Source: Bdellovibrio sp. (GTDB lineage: Bacteria; Bdellovibrionota; Bdellovibrionia; Bdellovibrionales; Bdellovibrionaceae). Taken from it: a stretch of 64,000 bases of DNA. A model generated the notes under the pieces. That model saw only the letters and a program-made list of their open reading frames with translations. It was not told where the DNA came from and searched no databases. The DNA is taken from contig JAKFCY010000003.1 of the NCBI GenBank assembly GCA_036676395.1, positions 224,001 through 288,000 on the forward strand. The letters are read 5' to 3'. Position numbers and translations under genes: made by a program. Shown piece by piece: positions 39,571-46,962 of the stretch (the first letter of the stretch is position 1; each line of letters starts with the position of its first letter).

Positions 39571-39980
39571 TTATTAGATTTTACGCCAGAACTTCCGCCC
39601 GTTGTTCCAGTTCTAACGGCAATCGGGTTAACACAAGTATTTGCGATAACCTGATCGCTTTCTAAATACGAACAGCGATGTGCTGTTGTGCGCGGAATAC
39701 ATTCTGCACGCTCTGGTTCTGGATCAACCTGAGCACTGACTTGATAATCATTCGGATCGTCTCCTAAGACAGAACTTGGCAAAACCGCGTCGTTCGTTGA
39801 AACGGCATCTTGTGTTTGTTCTGTAGGTACGCGCGGTGGTGTATTTGATCTGAAAATATTAACAAAAATTAAACCGATCGCGGCTAACTGCATTTTAAAT
39901 GCATCAAAAAATCCTGCCTGCGCAATGGGTGCTTGTAACAATGACAATGAAAACAACACGACCATAATTTTCTTATTCAT
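39567..39980 (-). CDS. Small secreted protein
   Basis: SD GGAG, signal peptide ending AQA, overlaps end of upstream YD-repeat gene. Confidence 0.7.
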   Translation of the reverse strand: MNKKIMVVLFSLSLLQAPIAQAGFFDAFKMQLAAIGLIFVNIFRSNTPPRVPTEQTQDAVSTNDAVLPSSVLGDDPNDYQVSAQVDPEPERAECIPRTTAHRCSYLESDQVIANTCVNPIAVRTGTTGGSSGVKSNN

Positions 39981-41250
39981 TGTTTGCTCCATTTTTCGTC
40001 AGTAAAAATTCTGTGAACAAATCAAAAGCCGCATAACCAGAATTTTTACGCTTCGACTCAGAAGATTCCATCGCATCTAGTTTGCCATTTTTATATTTGA
40101 AAACTACTTTGCCACTGCCGACTAATTCTAATTCAACTAACCGTTGATGTTTATATTTTGTATTGATTGTTTTTTTGCGTTTATTCGCTAATCGGGTTTG
40201 TTTAATCTGAGTGATGTTTCCTAAAGAATCTTCAATATAATCCCAACGCACGCCTTTAGCAGTTATCGTTTGCCAGCCTTTAGAAGTTTTAATCAGGTTG
40301 CCATTGATACTAACTGGCGTACGAAACAAAGCATCTTTATCCATGCGGTGCTTTTGAAACAAAGGCGAACTTGCAGAAGTAAATTCTTGAGTTGTTTTTT
40401 CACAAATATTTTTAACAGTCGATTTCAGCGATGCCGTGTTTACATCCATGAAATATGAAAAATCAAAACCGCAGTTGTTTGGATGACTGACTTTACTGAC
40501 AACATCTAGTTTTGAATCATAAGTTACAGTATGTCTTTCACCACTTGGAACCGTAAATCCATTTACACGACCTTTTGAATCGTAAGAATAAGTCATTTTT
40601 TTATTCCAGGCGTTTTCAACACTCACGAGGTTATTATCTTTGTCATAACTATACGTGACTTGAATTTTTTTTGGTCCAGTTATTTTTTCTAAAACTTTTT
40701 CAGTTTTTGCAAAACTAAAAAAATAGTGATCACCGCCATTGTGAACAATACGATCAATCATGTTGTGCTTGTTAAAATAAATACGAATAAATGGCTTTTC
40801 AGGATTATTCTTGCGCGAGATCAAACTTAACTGGCCTTGTTCATTATACACGATAATATTTTCAGAGCCGACACGCATATAACCAGAACCATTTGGAAGT
40901 TCCTGAATTATTTCTGTGCCGGCGTTGTTGGCATAACCACCTTCTGTCTTTGAAAAAACACTGGCTGTAGTTTGCCCGCATTTTCTGATTTCAAATCCAG
41001 AATTTGCCCGCACAATCGTTTCTTCTAATTGCGAGCACCAATTGTTGCCAAACATGCCATAGCTTTTTCGTTTATGATTATATTGGCGTTGAATTTTAAA
41101 TGGAGTTAAAACTTCTTTGGTGATTATATCTATTGTGTCTAATGACAGCTCACCACTGATTGGATTTACTTCTGCAAAAGACGTAAACCCTACGAATAAG
41201 ATTATTAAAGGTAATATTTTCTTCACTCTTATTATTTTAAACTTGTTCAA
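39973..41250 (-). CDS. Secreted DUF6531/YD-repeat (RHS-like) protein, short
   Basis: VNPISGEL, RQYN..GMFGNNW, YSYDKDNNL, YSYDSKGRV repeats. Confidence 0.75.
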   Translation of the reverse strand: MNKFKIIRVKKILPLIILFVGFTSFAEVNPISGELSLDTIDIITKEVLTPFKIQRQYNHKRKSYGMFGNNWCSQLEETIVRANSGFEIRKCGQTTASVFSKTEGGYANNAGTEIIQELPNGSGYMRVGSENIIVYNEQGQLSLISRKNNPEKPFIRIYFNKHNMIDRIVHNGGDHYFFSFAKTEKVLEKITGPKKIQVTYSYDKDNNLVSVENAWNKKMTYSYDSKGRVNGFTVPSGERHTVTYDSKLDVVSKVSHPNNCGFDFSYFMDVNTASLKSTVKNICEKTTQEFTSASSPLFQKHRMDKDALFRTPVSINGNLIKTSKGWQTITAKGVRWDYIEDSLGNITQIKQTRLANKRKKTINTKYKHQRLVELELVGSGKVVFKYKNGKLDAMESSESKRKNSGYAAFDLFTEFLLTKNGANNE

Positions 41251-41348
41251 AAATATTGATAGAGCTACGGGTCATTCTTTTTATTTCTGGTCTGATGTCG
41301 AGCCTTGGATTTGTTCTCTTTTGCAGTGATTAATGTAAAATTAAAAAC

Positions 41349-41756
41349 ATGAAAATACTTATCGGATTTTTATTAGTGTTAACTGCAGTAAATGCCTTGG
41401 CTGAACCAACTACCGATTGCGGAACCGCAAAATTAAATTACAAAAACGGCAAAGTAGCTGTTTCTGAAGAGGTTGAAATTTGTAAAAATGAATACAGTCA
41501 GTTTTATGCTAAAAAATGCGCTGATGGTTGTGAATTTATAAAAGCTTTAAAAAAACAAGGCGATATCGAATTAGAAGATTCAACTGTCGGAAGCCCTGGC
41601 GGACAAATTTGCCAACAGCTGGGCTTTGAATCTCGTTTAGTTGAAGTAGAATTTAAAAAAATTAAAACCCCGCACGTTGATTTGTGTTTTGGTGATGACA
41701 CAGACTCATTTGTCTCTTCAGGATTTTTACGTGATTTACAAGGTAGTCTTGAATGA
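41349..41756 (+). CDS. Secreted Cys-rich small protein
   Basis: Signal peptide, six Cys, GSPGGQICQQLG. Confidence 0.75.
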   Translation: MKILIGFLLVLTAVNALAEPTTDCGTAKLNYKNGKVAVSEEVEICKNEYSQFYAKKCADGCEFIKALKKQGDIELEDSTVGSPGGQICQQLGFESRLVEVEFKKIKTPHVDLCFGDDTDSFVSSGFLRDLQGSLE

Positions 41757-42718
41757 AATGGTTAACGTTTGTTATTTTCGCCTTCTTTGCACACAACTCA
41801 TTCGCTGCGGGCTCATGTGAAAATATCGATTTGCGCGATCAACTTGGCCCTGTGCTAAACCAAGATGGTACAGGATTATGTTATGCCTACACCGCTAGTG
41901 ACATCGTTTCTCATAAATTGGGTCGCAAGGTTTCTCCGGTAGACATTGCTCTTCAATACACTAAACATCGAGATGAATTAATGGTGCGTGGTGCGGGCAG
42001 TAAATATTTAAATCAAGTCACTGATGAGCGCAAAAGAGACATCTTTCACGGTGGCTGGGTTAGGTATGCTTTACAATATTCTAATCAAGTAGGATTTTGC
42101 GCCGACGAAAAAATTAATTCGAATGATTTCACAACTAATCGTGGCTTATTCAAAGGCTTAGTTAACTTGAATCAATTGAGTTTGCATCAATATAGTTTAG
42201 ATAGTTCTACTGGCGAATCTTGCGGAAAATTTGCTGAAATTCAAAAAGTTTTTCCAGGCGTAAGTATCCGTGAAATACAGGATATTGCCAATCGAAGCGA
42301 CATAACAAATGTTGGGGCTAACTTAACTGATAAAGCTTGCGAACCTCGCATTAAATCAACCACACCAATGAAGTTTAAAAATCTGCATAACGAAAGCAGT
42401 AGATCTGAAATTTTGCGCAGTTCTGATTTTAACGAAATCGACCGTGTTCTTAGCAAAAAACAACCTGTATCGGTTTCAATTTTTATGGATAAAATCTATA
42501 GTTTTGGTAAATCAAGTATCGCAAAACAACCCCGCCACGCTATTACATTGGCCGGAAGAAAATATAATCCGGCGACTGGCAAATGTGAATATATCTTAAA
42601 AAACTCTTGGGGACCAGAATGTGATCGCTATTACAAAGTACGTTGTGAAAATGGCTATTTATTCGTGCCTGAAGAAACGTTTAAATCAATTGTCTATGGG
42701 GCTGATTACATCGAATAA
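41753..42718 (+). CDS. Secreted papain-like (C1) cysteine peptidase
   Basis: IDLR, NQDGTGLCYAY (Gln/Cys), HAITLAG (His), KNSWG (Asn). Confidence 0.88.
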   Translation: MKWLTFVIFAFFAHNSFAAGSCENIDLRDQLGPVLNQDGTGLCYAYTASDIVSHKLGRKVSPVDIALQYTKHRDELMVRGAGSKYLNQVTDERKRDIFHGGWVRYALQYSNQVGFCADEKINSNDFTTNRGLFKGLVNLNQLSLHQYSLDSSTGESCGKFAEIQKVFPGVSIREIQDIANRSDITNVGANLTDKACEPRIKSTTPMKFKNLHNESSRSEILRSSDFNEIDRVLSKKQPVSVSIFMDKIYSFGKSSIAKQPRHAITLAGRKYNPATGKCEYILKNSWGPECDRYYKVRCENGYLFVPEETFKSIVYGADYIE

Positions 42719-42725
42719 TTAAAAT

Positions 42726-43805
42726 TTAGCCGCGCGAACGAAATAAACAAAAGTTTCCGTAACTGAACACTTGCGGCGCCGACCAGTTTTTCTTTTCAGC
42801 AACTGTCATAAACTGTTCGCGAGCATTGCCTTTAGTGATGATCATAATTTTTTTAGTCGCTGCAATCGCATTAAGTTGCGCAATCACATGCATATATGTT
42901 TCTGCCGTAAAGGGATCAAACATATAATAAACTTCAGCTTCAGGAATTTTAAAATCCGCTAACGAAAGATCTTGATGAAAAAACTGAGTTTTCTTCTGAA
43001 TACCTAATTTATAAGCAGCAGCATTTGCTAAATCAACACGGTTACTTACAAACTCATAGCCCTTGAAATCGATATCTGGACGTAACAAGCTCACGACTAA
43101 GCCTACCCGGCCATAGCCAGAACCTAAATCAACAAAGCGTGCGTTTAATGGTATACGCAGATAATTAAGTGCAATGATGATCGTATTATAAGTCGATTGA
43201 ACACCTACGCCAGAGCCTTGATAAATTCGCTCTAGAGTTTCATCTGCAGCTTCTGTAGATTGCATTTCAATTTTATAATCCAGATTAAAAACATGATCTA
43301 AAATATCAAAAGTGCGATCTAAAGAAAAGCTGACTGGTTCTTTTTTATCATCGTATTGATTGTGAAGCTCTTGTTCGAATTCAAAAATTTCCAACATTAA
43401 TTTTAAACATTGAATAGTAAATACAGAATGCTCGCTATTTTCTAAATGAGTAATCTCAACTAAAAATGTTTTTAGGATCAACGTCACGTTACGACGCATG
43501 ACTTCGATTTCTGCAATATCTGCAGACTCAAGTGTCGAATGTAAAAATAGAATTAAGCTAAGTTCTTGCTTGAAAAACTTTTTAACAAAGTTTCCGAAAT
43601 GGGCTGGTTCTGATTTTTCTTTATTGTAAATCCAGTACTGCTCTTGGATAAATCGAAAGATCGTAATTAGAAATGCAGTATCAATAAATAGAGAGGCACG
43701 CTCGCGTACGGGCAATGAGCGCCATAGCGAGGTGATATCATTTTCACAGAGGCTTAAATTTTTATTTTTTAATAGAAGTATAAAGCTCTGTTGGTGGGTT
43801 CTCAT
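42726..43805 (-). CDS. Class I SAM-dependent methyltransferase (DOT1-like) with helical N-terminal domain
   Basis: FVDLGSGYGRV, GYEFVSNR, QDL, YYMFDPF. Confidence 0.8.
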   Translation of the reverse strand: MRTHQQSFILLLKNKNLSLCENDITSLWRSLPVRERASLFIDTAFLITIFRFIQEQYWIYNKEKSEPAHFGNFVKKFFKQELSLILFLHSTLESADIAEIEVMRRNVTLILKTFLVEITHLENSEHSVFTIQCLKLMLEIFEFEQELHNQYDDKKEPVSFSLDRTFDILDHVFNLDYKIEMQSTEAADETLERIYQGSGVGVQSTYNTIIIALNYLRIPLNARFVDLGSGYGRVGLVVSLLRPDIDFKGYEFVSNRVDLANAAAYKLGIQKKTQFFHQDLSLADFKIPEAEVYYMFDPFTAETYMHVIAQLNAIAATKKIMIITKGNAREQFMTVAEKKNWSAPQVFSYGNFCLFRSRG

Positions 43806-44035
43806 TACCTACCAACGTTTTTGTGTCGGTGAGTTATTAGTCCGTGCGTTGGATCATACGGAGATAATCCAACGTCAACAGAGTCACCTACAACAACCTT
43901 GATATTAAACTTTTTCATTTTACCACACAATCTAGCTTGGACTTTTACGCCATTATCTAGAGTGATGTGGTAAACGCCGCCCCCTGAAAGGTCATGTATT
44001 TTGCCTTTCAGAGTAACCAGGTCGTCTTTAGCCAC
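43805..44035 (-). CDS. infA: Translation initiation factor IF-1
   Basis: MAKDD..G, LDNG..V.A.LCGKMKKFNIKVVVGDSV.V.LSPYD..GLITHR. Confidence 0.92.
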   Translation of the reverse strand: MAKDDLVTLKGKIHDLSGGGVYHITLDNGVKVQARLCGKMKKFNIKVVVGDSVDVGLSPYDPTHGLITHRHKNVGR

Positions 44036-44352
44036 TAGTAACGACCGCCGCCGCCACCACCGCGAGATCCGCCGCCGAAGCCGCCACCGCGATTAGTTTT
44101 AGGTTCCATTGGTTTAGCTACAGTAACAGTCATAGCACGTTGTAATTGCTCAGAACCGTTTAATTTTTGGATAGCGTCGTTAGCTTCAGCTTCAGTAGAC
44201 ATTTCTACGAATGCGAAACCTTTAGAGCGACCAGATTCACGGTCCATGATGATTTTTGTAGATTGAACGTTACCAACTTCAGAAAATAAGTTAGTTAGAG
44301 TTTGTTCATCCATTTTAAAAGATAAGTTTCCAACGTATAGTTTGTTGTTCAT
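44035..44352 (-). CDS. RRM RNA-binding protein with Gly/RGG tail
   Basis: RNP2 LYVGNL, RNP1 KGFAFVEM, tail NRGGGFGGGSRGGGGGGRY. Confidence 0.95.
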   Translation of the reverse strand: MNNKLYVGNLSFKMDEQTLTNLFSEVGNVQSTKIIMDRESGRSKGFAFVEMSTEAEANDAIQKLNGSEQLQRAMTVTVAKPMEPKTNRGGGFGGGSRGGGGGGRY

Positions 44353-44556
44353 AATTCCTCCTCAGGAATAAAGTGTTCGCCTAAGAAGAAAGAGCTTAAT
44401 GCTTTTGATCGATAGTACAGAACGGTTGAGACTTAGATTTAAACTATTTTTGCGTCTTTACCTAGCAAATAATGCTTTTTCTTTCAGAAGCTATTCTATT
44501 CGATATAAAGGGAATTTTTACCCCATTTGCTCAACTTTTAATTGTTGAGGGCTAGT

Positions 44557-45027
44557 TTAATGCAGAAGCTTTGTGCCCACCGTGTTAACAGAGGCATTCA
44601 CCTCGGCGCTAGTCGCATCGCGGACTTCAAGGGCTTCGATTTCGAATACCAGATCCTGACCAGCTAACGGATGGTTTCCATCCAGTCTAATAAAGTCATT
44701 TTGAAACTCTACTACTTTGTAGGTTCTAGAGTTTCCGCTTTTTCCGATAATCGAAATAATTTGGCCAATGCGAAGATCTTTTCCGAGCTTTTTAACAGGA
44801 TAAAGAATAATTTTTTGCAGGTCATAAAAACCGTAGGCCTCGCTGGCAGTGATACTAATTTTTCGGTGTTCGCCTTTTTTTAGATTTTGCAAACCTTGAG
44901 TAAGCCCAACTAACATGGTGTCAGCCGGATTAACTGAAGTTAAAACATCACGATTGTAGGTAGTACTAATTAACTGACCAGCTGTATTTTTTAGAATGCA
45001 GTTAAATGAAATAATTTGCGAATTCAT
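44557..45027 (-). CDS. FKBP-type peptidyl-prolyl isomerase (SlyD/SlpA-like, no His tail)
   Basis: EAYG, LDGNHPLAGQDLVFEIE. Confidence 0.85.
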   Translation of the reverse strand: MNSQIISFNCILKNTAGQLISTTYNRDVLTSVNPADTMLVGLTQGLQNLKKGEHRKISITASEAYGFYDLQKIILYPVKKLGKDLRIGQIISIIGKSGNSRTYKVVEFQNDFIRLDGNHPLAGQDLVFEIEALEVRDATSAEVNASVNTVGTKLLH

Positions 45028-45043
45028 CAGTTCCCCTATCGCG

Positions 45044-45074
45044 AAAATAAAAACCGACCTATTACGGTCGGTTT
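45044..45074 (-). terminator. Terminator after upstream RRM gene
   Basis: AAACCGACC-N6-GGTCGGTTT with U-tract on minus strand. Confidence 0.75.
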
Positions 45075-45096
45075 AATTAATTTTTAACTAAAAAAA

Positions 45097-45366
45097 TTAG
45101 TATGAATTAGTACGAGGAGCCATTGGTTTAGCTTCTGAAACATTCATAGCGCGACCATCAAAATCAGTTCCGTTAAAACGGCTGATAGTTGTCGTAGCTT
45201 CTGCAGAAGTAGACATTTCTACGAATGCAAAACCTTTAGAGCGACCAGAATCGCGATCCATAATGATTTTAACTGATTGAACAGTTCCACACTCAGAAAA
45301 TTTATCACCTAATGATTGATCAGTTGCAGAATATGGCAAATTGCCAACGTATAATTTATTACTCAT
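45097..45366 (-). CDS. RRM RNA-binding protein (no Gly tail)
   Basis: LYVGNL, KGFAFVEM; close paralog of 44035..44352. Confidence 0.95.
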   Translation of the reverse strand: MSNKLYVGNLPYSATDQSLGDKFSECGTVQSVKIIMDRDSGRSKGFAFVEMSTSAEATTTISRFNGTDFDGRAMNVSEAKPMAPRTNSY

Positions 45367-45647
45367 AAAAACCTCCTAAAGGCTTGAGCGCTACTTCGGA
45401 GGAATTGAACAGAATGAACAAGGTCTCTAACTTAGCTATTTACTTATCGGCACTTTACCACGAATAAAAAAATCGACCTAATTTATAATTGGTTCAGATC
45501 GTTGCAGTCGCATTTGAACTAGATAGTTTGTGTTCGACCTCTAAGTGGCTCAGAACGATTAGAGGTCTTTTATTGAAAATTTAATGGTCATTAACTTTAT
45601 AGATTGAATTTCTTTTAGCGCAGTTTCGCGCGAATATTACGATTCTT

Positions 45648-45854
45648 TTAACATTTGTTCGGCTCCAGAAAGTCGAAACCAAAAATCATTAACTGCAAAG
45701 TAAAAAACACAAGCAAGCCGATGATAATACTTCGACGCGTAGCTTGAAGCATCTTTAGATAAATTAAGATGGCTTTTTTCTTAACCTGACCAAACGCATA
45801 TTTATACGCCATTTGACTTAAAAAAAATGAGAAAATCTTTCGCATCCAATTCAT
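45648..45854 (-). pseudogene. Short membrane ORF, possibly a truncated gene
   Basis: Protein-like N-terminus and one TM segment, then an abrupt end. Confidence 0.35.
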
Positions 45855-46886: not shown

Positions 46887-46962
46887 TGGTGGCCAAGGAC
46901 GGAATTGAACCGCCGACACGATGATTTTCAGTCATCTGCTCTACCGACTGAGCTACTTGGCC
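46887..46962 (-). tRNA. tRNA-Phe (GAA)
   Basis: GGCCAAG acceptor stem, D-loop, anticodon loop CTGAAAA, GTTCAATTC T-loop, encoded CCA; 76 nt. Confidence 0.97.

Follow-up and report, generated by a model that had tools for sequence, protein, structure and literature searches.

A family of S-adenosylmethionine (SAM)-dependent class I methyltransferases (MTases) is genuinely linked to genes for RNA chaperones, an association that is apparently unreported; our searches, which most subscription papers lay beyond, found no literature on such a linkage or on lysine methylation of bacterial CspA. One member lies in the window analysed here, a 64,000-nt stretch (contig JAKFCY010000003.1, positions 224,001-288,000, forward) of a predatory-type Bdellovibrio sp. 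(Bdellovibrionota; assembly GCA_036676395.1, 99% complete), where it closes a cluster at 42726-45366 that also holds two genes for RNA recognition motif (RRM) proteins, RRM1 and RRM2, a SlyD-type FKBP gene and infA2, a second gene for initiation factor 1 (IF1). The link outlasts both rearrangement and a change in the fold of the partner, RRM for CspA; this is the main positive result, and it belongs mostly to a shorter subfamily of the enzyme, the long window enzyme sharing it loosely. We tentatively read the window enzyme, with somewhat less than even confidence, as a putative protein-lysine MTase that is co-expressed with stress RNA chaperones and acts on a translation protein. The locus itself is likely an accessory RNA-chaperone cluster, predicted to be stress- or cold-responsive.

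Linkage of the methyltransferase family to RNA chaperones

The shorter relatives, of 213-293 residues, form a well-supported clade of their own, with starred branches between the short and long clades (a second tree covered 75 of 115 rows). Fifteen of the 16 short-subfamily members in the tree adjoin an RRM or CspA gene. With a profile made from those 16, matches were obtained in 56 of the 201 genomes of family f18, and among the best 36 of the 42 held-out matches, which were the ones examined, an RRM or CspA gene lay within 1.5 kb in 28, whether upstream, downstream or divergent. RRM and CspA thus interchange as the partner of the short enzyme, which by analogy fits Bacteroides, where one study describes RRM-1 proteins as cold-shock proteins redundant with Csp, and Csp, a DEAD-box helicase and RbpB in a single operon in B. 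thetaiotaomicron (PMC13370968). The short-subfamily loci of family f18 (L293-L342) are a better experimental target than the window gene.

The long subfamily shares this link less closely. Among 251 genomes of the phylum, 28 carry a full-length long-MTase orthologue. In 6, 14 and 16 of them the orthologue has an RRM or CspA gene within 2, 5 and 8 kb, respectively, where random placement predicts 0.14, 0.29 and 0.45, an enrichment that is overstated because the 28 genomes are kin. About six arrangements of the long MTase with RRM or CspA occur across four genera besides the window's own; a DEAD-box helicase gene lies within 5 kb in eight of the 28 genomes, three of them without RRM or CspA (a raw count, with no null), and long and short MTase genes are tandem or close together at five places (G221, G179, G401, G200 and L243). 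The association of the family with RNA chaperones, which the initial annotation had glimpsed in a single cluster, is therefore beyond chance, with 14 of 28 genomes at 5 kb for the long subfamily and 28 of 36 held-out loci for the short; for the long subfamily it is real but loose.

The initial annotation had also proposed a conserved five-gene module, and here a survey of neighbourhoods in the genus gave a narrower picture. The five co-oriented genes are indeed present in the window; their exact order occurs in only three of 52 genus genomes and is interrupted by an internal terminator-like site (Table 1), and the five-gene module is lineage-restricted. The full-length MTase is found in 16 of the 52, with partial matches in three more, and adjoins part of the cluster in eight of these 16, IF1 directly preceding it in four. 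Variants include the five-gene order with five extra open reading frames (ORFs) inserted (G251), RRM-FKBP-MTase (G258), RRM-FKBP convergent on the MTase (G228 and G141) and RRM-MTase (G286).

Fold and probable chemistry of the methyltransferase

The AlphaFold model of the window MTase (pLDDT 90) confirmed a class I seven-strand fold with a DxGxGxG motif, and its best match in structure comparison (VIA), tied with a tRNA m1A58 MTase, was the bacterial DOT1L-like enzyme 9ne1 (Z 15.9, rmsd 3.0, 177 aligned), with yeast Dot1p (1u2z) at Z 13.3. The motifs DLGSGYGR and YMFDPF, on which a DOT1-type label had initially been based, are both found in the translation. That label holds as a resemblance, given the 9ne1 match and the closest Atlas clusters, of which ranks 2-4 carry DOT1 on 73-90% of their members; it fails as a family assignment in that the Pfam DOT1 cut-off was not reached. 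That cut-off (PF08123) is passed by remoter homologues within the main branch to which the enzyme belongs; at E<=0.01 the profile hits 30 of 64 orthologues, and MTS 61 of the 64.

Strand 4 ends in Asp297 (the Post II position), which is Asp in 104 and Asn in 31 of 140 aligned homologues. In PrmA and DOT1L such a residue positions the target lysine (PMC10238732). Judged from these residues, the enzyme likely methylates an amine, with lysine and base both fitting because RNA amino-MTases carry a similar residue. The protein is acidic (net charge -5; median -6 for the long family, with three of 64 orthologues positive) and no RNA-binding domain or fusion was found in it or in 25 scanned homologues, which together lean weakly towards a protein substrate.

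Likeness to the DOT1 family (LpDot1, 9ne1; Dot1p) lies in the class I fold, DxGxGxG and the Asp/Asn that ends strand 4. The window enzyme differs in falling under the Pfam cut-off, in a helical N-domain of its own, in having VQS where LpDot1 has YGE (inferred register), and in its setting, a free-living host lineage and an RNA-chaperone neighbourhood. Folded alone, the N-domain gave no fold match at Z >=8 (best 6.8), which is uninformative, and searches of solved structures by sequence, with the single protein and with a profile, returned weak generic class I matches only. Earlier work places bacterial Dot1 among endosymbiont effectors (PMC3417536), and the bacterial DOT1-like enzyme that is the best structural match here was shown to methylate a lysine of a non-histone protein (10.64898/2026.01.11.698932); in the literature that we reached, no substrate was assigned to a DOT1-like MTase of a free-living bacterium.

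The short-subfamily profile matches structures of the archaeal aKMT/FAM173 group (ANT-KMT, ATPSc-KMT), namely 5fa8 (E 8.6e-4) and the protein-lysine N-methyltransferase 5jwj (E 0.035); these matches span the SAM-binding region only, and RsmG and PrmC are matched at least as well, so that orthology is not implied. FAM173-type enzymes methylate lysine, not arginine (PMC5828452, on FAM173B).

The family is of modest size, with 127 clusters at E<=1e-30 among 1.84 billion representatives. Its distant homologues include five with two tandem MTase domains (P0226, P0228, P0229, P0230 and P0232; the three N-termini inspected resemble signal peptides), and one that joins the MTase domain to TPR repeats and a HATPase domain (P0245).

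The proposed reading and its alternatives

Genomic context and fold both supply points that weigh against the protein-lysine reading. Besides the kinship of the 28 genomes, 14 of them have no RRM or CspA gene within 5 kb of the long MTase; among metagenome loci with full 6-kb flanks such a gene accompanies it in only 3 of 16, and IF1 stands beside it in none of 53 metagenome loci. Within the genus, the MTase lies elsewhere than the cluster in 8 of the 16 genomes that have the full gene (three on contigs <6 kb), and G023 keeps RRM-FKBP-RRM-IF1 with no MTase match. The gene next to the MTase points towards it in G228, G141 and five g3 genomes, and the two are there not co-transcribed. One alternative is a passenger: an accessory enzyme that settled in a variable region with chaperone paralogues, its linkage coming from inherited synteny and from clustering with its short paralogue, and its function having nothing to do with translation. 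In favour of this, at least half of the orthologues lack a chaperone gene beside them, convergent arrangements are frequent, the G023 cluster persists without the MTase, and the gene was found in only 16 of the 52 genus genomes. Against a passenger, the association reappears in two families, each time with other partners, the overlap of the MTase start with the infA2 stop is kept in three spellings (TAATG, TAGTG and ATGA), and the short subfamily is tightly linked; we consider this explanation the most credible of the alternatives and nonetheless unlikely on balance. If it held, the locus would be an ordinary cluster of paralogues.

On the side of fold, the tRNA m1A58 MTase 3lga (Z 15.7, rmsd 2.4, 166 aligned) is tied with 9ne1, PF08123 scores 14.2 bits on the window enzyme against a cut-off of 23, and the Atlas recognition value of 2299 falls just below threshold and is borderline. 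The Foldseek search that the initial annotation had called for gave generic class I ties only, its top rows including small-molecule MTases such as BchU. An Asp or Asn after strand 4 is typical of RNA amino-MTases as well. The enzyme could thus be an RNA amino-MTase whose target is a base nitrogen of tRNA, rRNA or mRNA, with the chaperones unfolding that RNA for it. Consistent with this, TrmI (Z 15.7), Trm14 (15.0) and TrmN (14.8) are near-tied folds, RsmG/GidB matches 21 of the 64 long members and 12 of 19 in a mostly short alignment, all the neighbours are RNA-binding, and a basic N-terminal helix is conserved within the short subfamily. The long family, by contrast, is net acidic and has neither a THUMP nor another RNA-binding domain that we could detect; the Pfam RNA-MTase matches lie mostly over the SAM-binding strands; and the genome already has three RsmG/GidB-family genes over cut-off (G000:C2:1195464, C3:94157 and C3:378261). 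We regard an RNA substrate as unlikely.

The BchU rows, together with one distant homologue fused to an LPG-synthase domain (P0261), might instead indicate a small-molecule or lipid MTase within the same stress regulon. No biosynthetic genes recur alongside, and the closest Atlas clusters are DOT1-rich, making this improbable.

Candidate substrates

The initial annotation had named the RRM2 tail among the possible targets; in its specific form the idea is that the RGG arginines of this tail are methylated. RGG arginines are methylated by protein arginine methyltransferases (PRMTs), RRM2 has two RGG motifs and is encoded two genes upstream, and the enzyme is acidic. Across genomes, however, the motif does not correlate with the enzyme. 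Of the infA2-linked RRM proteins, 5 of 10 carry RGG where the genome has an MTase match and 9 of 15 where it has none; seven RRM partners of short-subfamily enzymes all lack it, and in many cases the partner is CspA. Gly/Arg tails are general among these RRM proteins. DOT1-type enzymes are lysine and not arginine MTases (PMC10238732), and we hold RGG methylation to be highly improbable.

IF1, also named, makes a weak candidate, as it adjoins the MTase in only the four genomes already mentioned and its paralogue is common where no MTase was found. A bolder proposal is that a dedicated DOT1-like lysine MTase directly methylates the cold-shock RNA chaperones, RRM and CspA interchangeably and IF1 in this lineage. 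We think this distinctly unlikely. No lysine is common to all partners, the RNP1 position being Lys in four and Arg in three of the seven short-subfamily RRM partners, so a third translation protein is the first guess. It is a somewhat better guess than a chaperone because the partner folds swap and because seven-β-strand (7BS) lysine MTases mostly recognise folded surfaces; for most human ones the targets are translation, mitochondrial or chaperone proteins, and recognition is mainly of folded features (PMC10238732).

Under the protein-lysine reading, RRM2, infA2 and the MTase would form one translationally coupled unit beneath a structured leader. A PF00313 profile found no cold-shock-domain gene in the genome, and the role of CspA would fall to the RRM proteins; infA2 would add initiation capacity or RNA melting; Asp297 would position an amine for methyl transfer; and the substrate would be a third protein common to RRM and CspA settings, such as a ribosomal protein, a translation factor or a helicase.

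A conserved RRM-infA2 pair

That the window infA is a second paralogue, as first suggested, was confirmed: the genome has two infA genes, as do 23 of 52 genus genomes, and the window IF1 is 64% identical to the other copy (G000:C2:505756-505977). The window gene does lie outside the ribosomal-protein operon; this does not mark it as the paralogue, as had been supposed, because the other copy lies outside the operon too, and it is by context and sequence that we call it accessory. The other infA has a Lys/Ala-rich ORF ahead of it in 26 of 27 loci and a large conserved gene, which by a motif looks like tex, after it in 25 of 27. The accessory infA directly follows an RRM gene in 28 of 34 loci (two of the six misses are contig ends; three further infA matches stand outside the count). 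RRM-infA2 is a conserved pair of the locus.

Across the genus, the accessory IF1 has Lys in place of the housekeeping Arg at up to three positions of its basic segment, changes found also in genomes without an MTase match. IF1 is known for cold induction.

Transcription units and leaders

Two 1-nt stop/start overlaps, TAGTG and TAATG, chain RRM2 to infA2 and infA2 to the MTase. A single transcript for all five genes is not supported: the terminator-like hairpin that follows RRM1 has a predicted energy of -14.5 kcal/mol (z -4.0, with none of 200 shuffles equally stable), and RRM1 and RRM2 lie on separate RNA-library contigs. Our interpretation is that the locus comprises two units or more: RRM1, and RRM2-infA2-MTase, FKBP lying between them. 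The RNA data are assembled contigs of four soil metatranscriptomes, which report presence only and have no DNA control, so contig ends are a weak hint. RRM1 was covered in three of the four runs (ends at 45431, 45424 and 45431) and RRM2 contigs ended at 44415 and 44414 in two studies, that is, 58-65 nt upstream of each start. One contig bridges RRM2 and infA2, which is not proof of a single transcript; FKBP and the body of the MTase had no cover in any run, from which, with presence-only data, nothing is concluded. A promoter scan performed at chance level (11 vs 9.5).

The hairpin predicted over the IF1 stop and MTase start (Table 1) is possibly a device of translational coupling; it is absent in L178 (z -0.3).

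The leaders of the RRM (rbp) genes are predicted to hide the Shine-Dalgarno (SD) sequence. Of 36 rbp leaders, which are partly kin, 35 have a GGAG core; in single-sequence folds of 62 nt this core was paired at a probability of at least 0.8 in 30 of them, compared with 94 of 367 controls among the genes of this genome. RNAalifold on 19 rbp leaders recovered three pairs only and not the stem, so the basis for the hairpin is folding of single sequences rather than covariation. Rfam gave no match over threshold apart from a neighbouring tRNA, and the rbp leader is a candidate autoregulatory or temperature-sensing element. Leaders with a predicted SD-hiding hairpin occur across Bdellovibrionota (the window; L040, L044, L139 and L177-L210), often preceded by a small hairpin. 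In Bacteroides, feedback through rbp leaders is reported (PMC13370968). Both window RRMs pass the cut-off for single-RRM RNA-binding regulators (NF058537; 105.5 and 101.7 bits against 100) and, like the Bacteroides cold-shock proteins RbpA-C, have structured leaders, while differing in their company (a second infA, a SlyD paralogue and an MTase) and in leader length, about 63 nt against 122-155 nt.

Gene content of the locus

Family cut-offs were passed by both RRMs (PF00076 twice), by FKBP (PF00254) and by IF1 (PF01176, and TIGR00008 with 68.6 bits against 61.15); the MTase has class I matches below cut-off only. Genome-wide there are two infA, three RRM and two SlyD-like FKBP genes, and one copy of the MTase.

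Table 1. Genes and predicted RNA elements of the cluster, in coordinates of the window
Feature	Position	Strand	Description
RRM1	45097-45366	-	89 aa; single RRM, no Gly tail; PF00076 E 7.5e-21; NF058537 over cut-off
FKBP, SlyD-type paralogue	44557-45027	-	156 aa; without His-rich tail; PF00254 and PRK10737
RRM2	44035-44352	-	105 aa; single RRM, Gly/Arg tail with two RGG; PF00076 and NF058537 over cut-off
IF1 (infA2)	43805-44035	-	76 aa; GTG start; TIGR00008 over cut-off; 1-nt overlap at each side
MTase	42726-43805	-	359 aa; class I SAM-dependent, DOT1-like; helical N-domain of ~155 aa and seven-strand domain
RRM1 5' leader	45367-45431	-	~65 nt; predicted SD-hiding hairpin; SD pairing probability 1.0
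Intrinsic-terminator-like hairpin between RRM1 and FKBP	45051-45074	-	9-bp stem and T tail
RRM2 5' leader	44353-44415	-	~63 nt; predicted SD-sequestering hairpin (single-sequence fold)
Hairpin spanning IF1 stop and MTase start	43789-43817	-	z -2.2 in the window, z -3.8 in L002

The window FKBP is 34% identical to the core SlyD copy, and because that copy, too, precedes an RRM gene, one with a long Gly-rich tail (G000:C2:2690820-2692004), the window FKBP-RRM2 may be an old duplicate of the core pair. Besides lacking the His-rich tail, the window paralogue has a Cys in place of the core copy's Tyr in the first strand, where the Tyr has a role in isomerase activity; from this change, its activity may be reduced.

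Around the cluster, a short ORF of 68 aa (45648-45854, minus strand) has counterparts of 119-120 aa in L001, L002 and L035 from which its end diverges, likely through a frameshift or assembly error. The genes at 39973-42718, for an RHS/DUF6531 protein and a papain-like peptidase, are found again as a pair close to the MTase locus in L001, L035, L177 and L178. A tRNA gene at 46890-46962 (minus strand), 1.5 kb upstream of the cluster, is a possible integration site for the variable region.

Significance

A genomic link that persists when CspA replaces RRM suggests a pathway and provides small soluble proteins for direct assay; the RRM-infA2 pair and the SD-hiding rbp leaders are testable separately. 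Were the chaperones themselves methylated, bacteria would have a post-translational switch that acts on RNA chaperones, one that arose in two subfamilies and was kept across a swap of partner fold. Should the substrate be an RNA chaperone or a translation protein, the enzyme would add a further layer of modification to the bacterial response to cold or translation stress.

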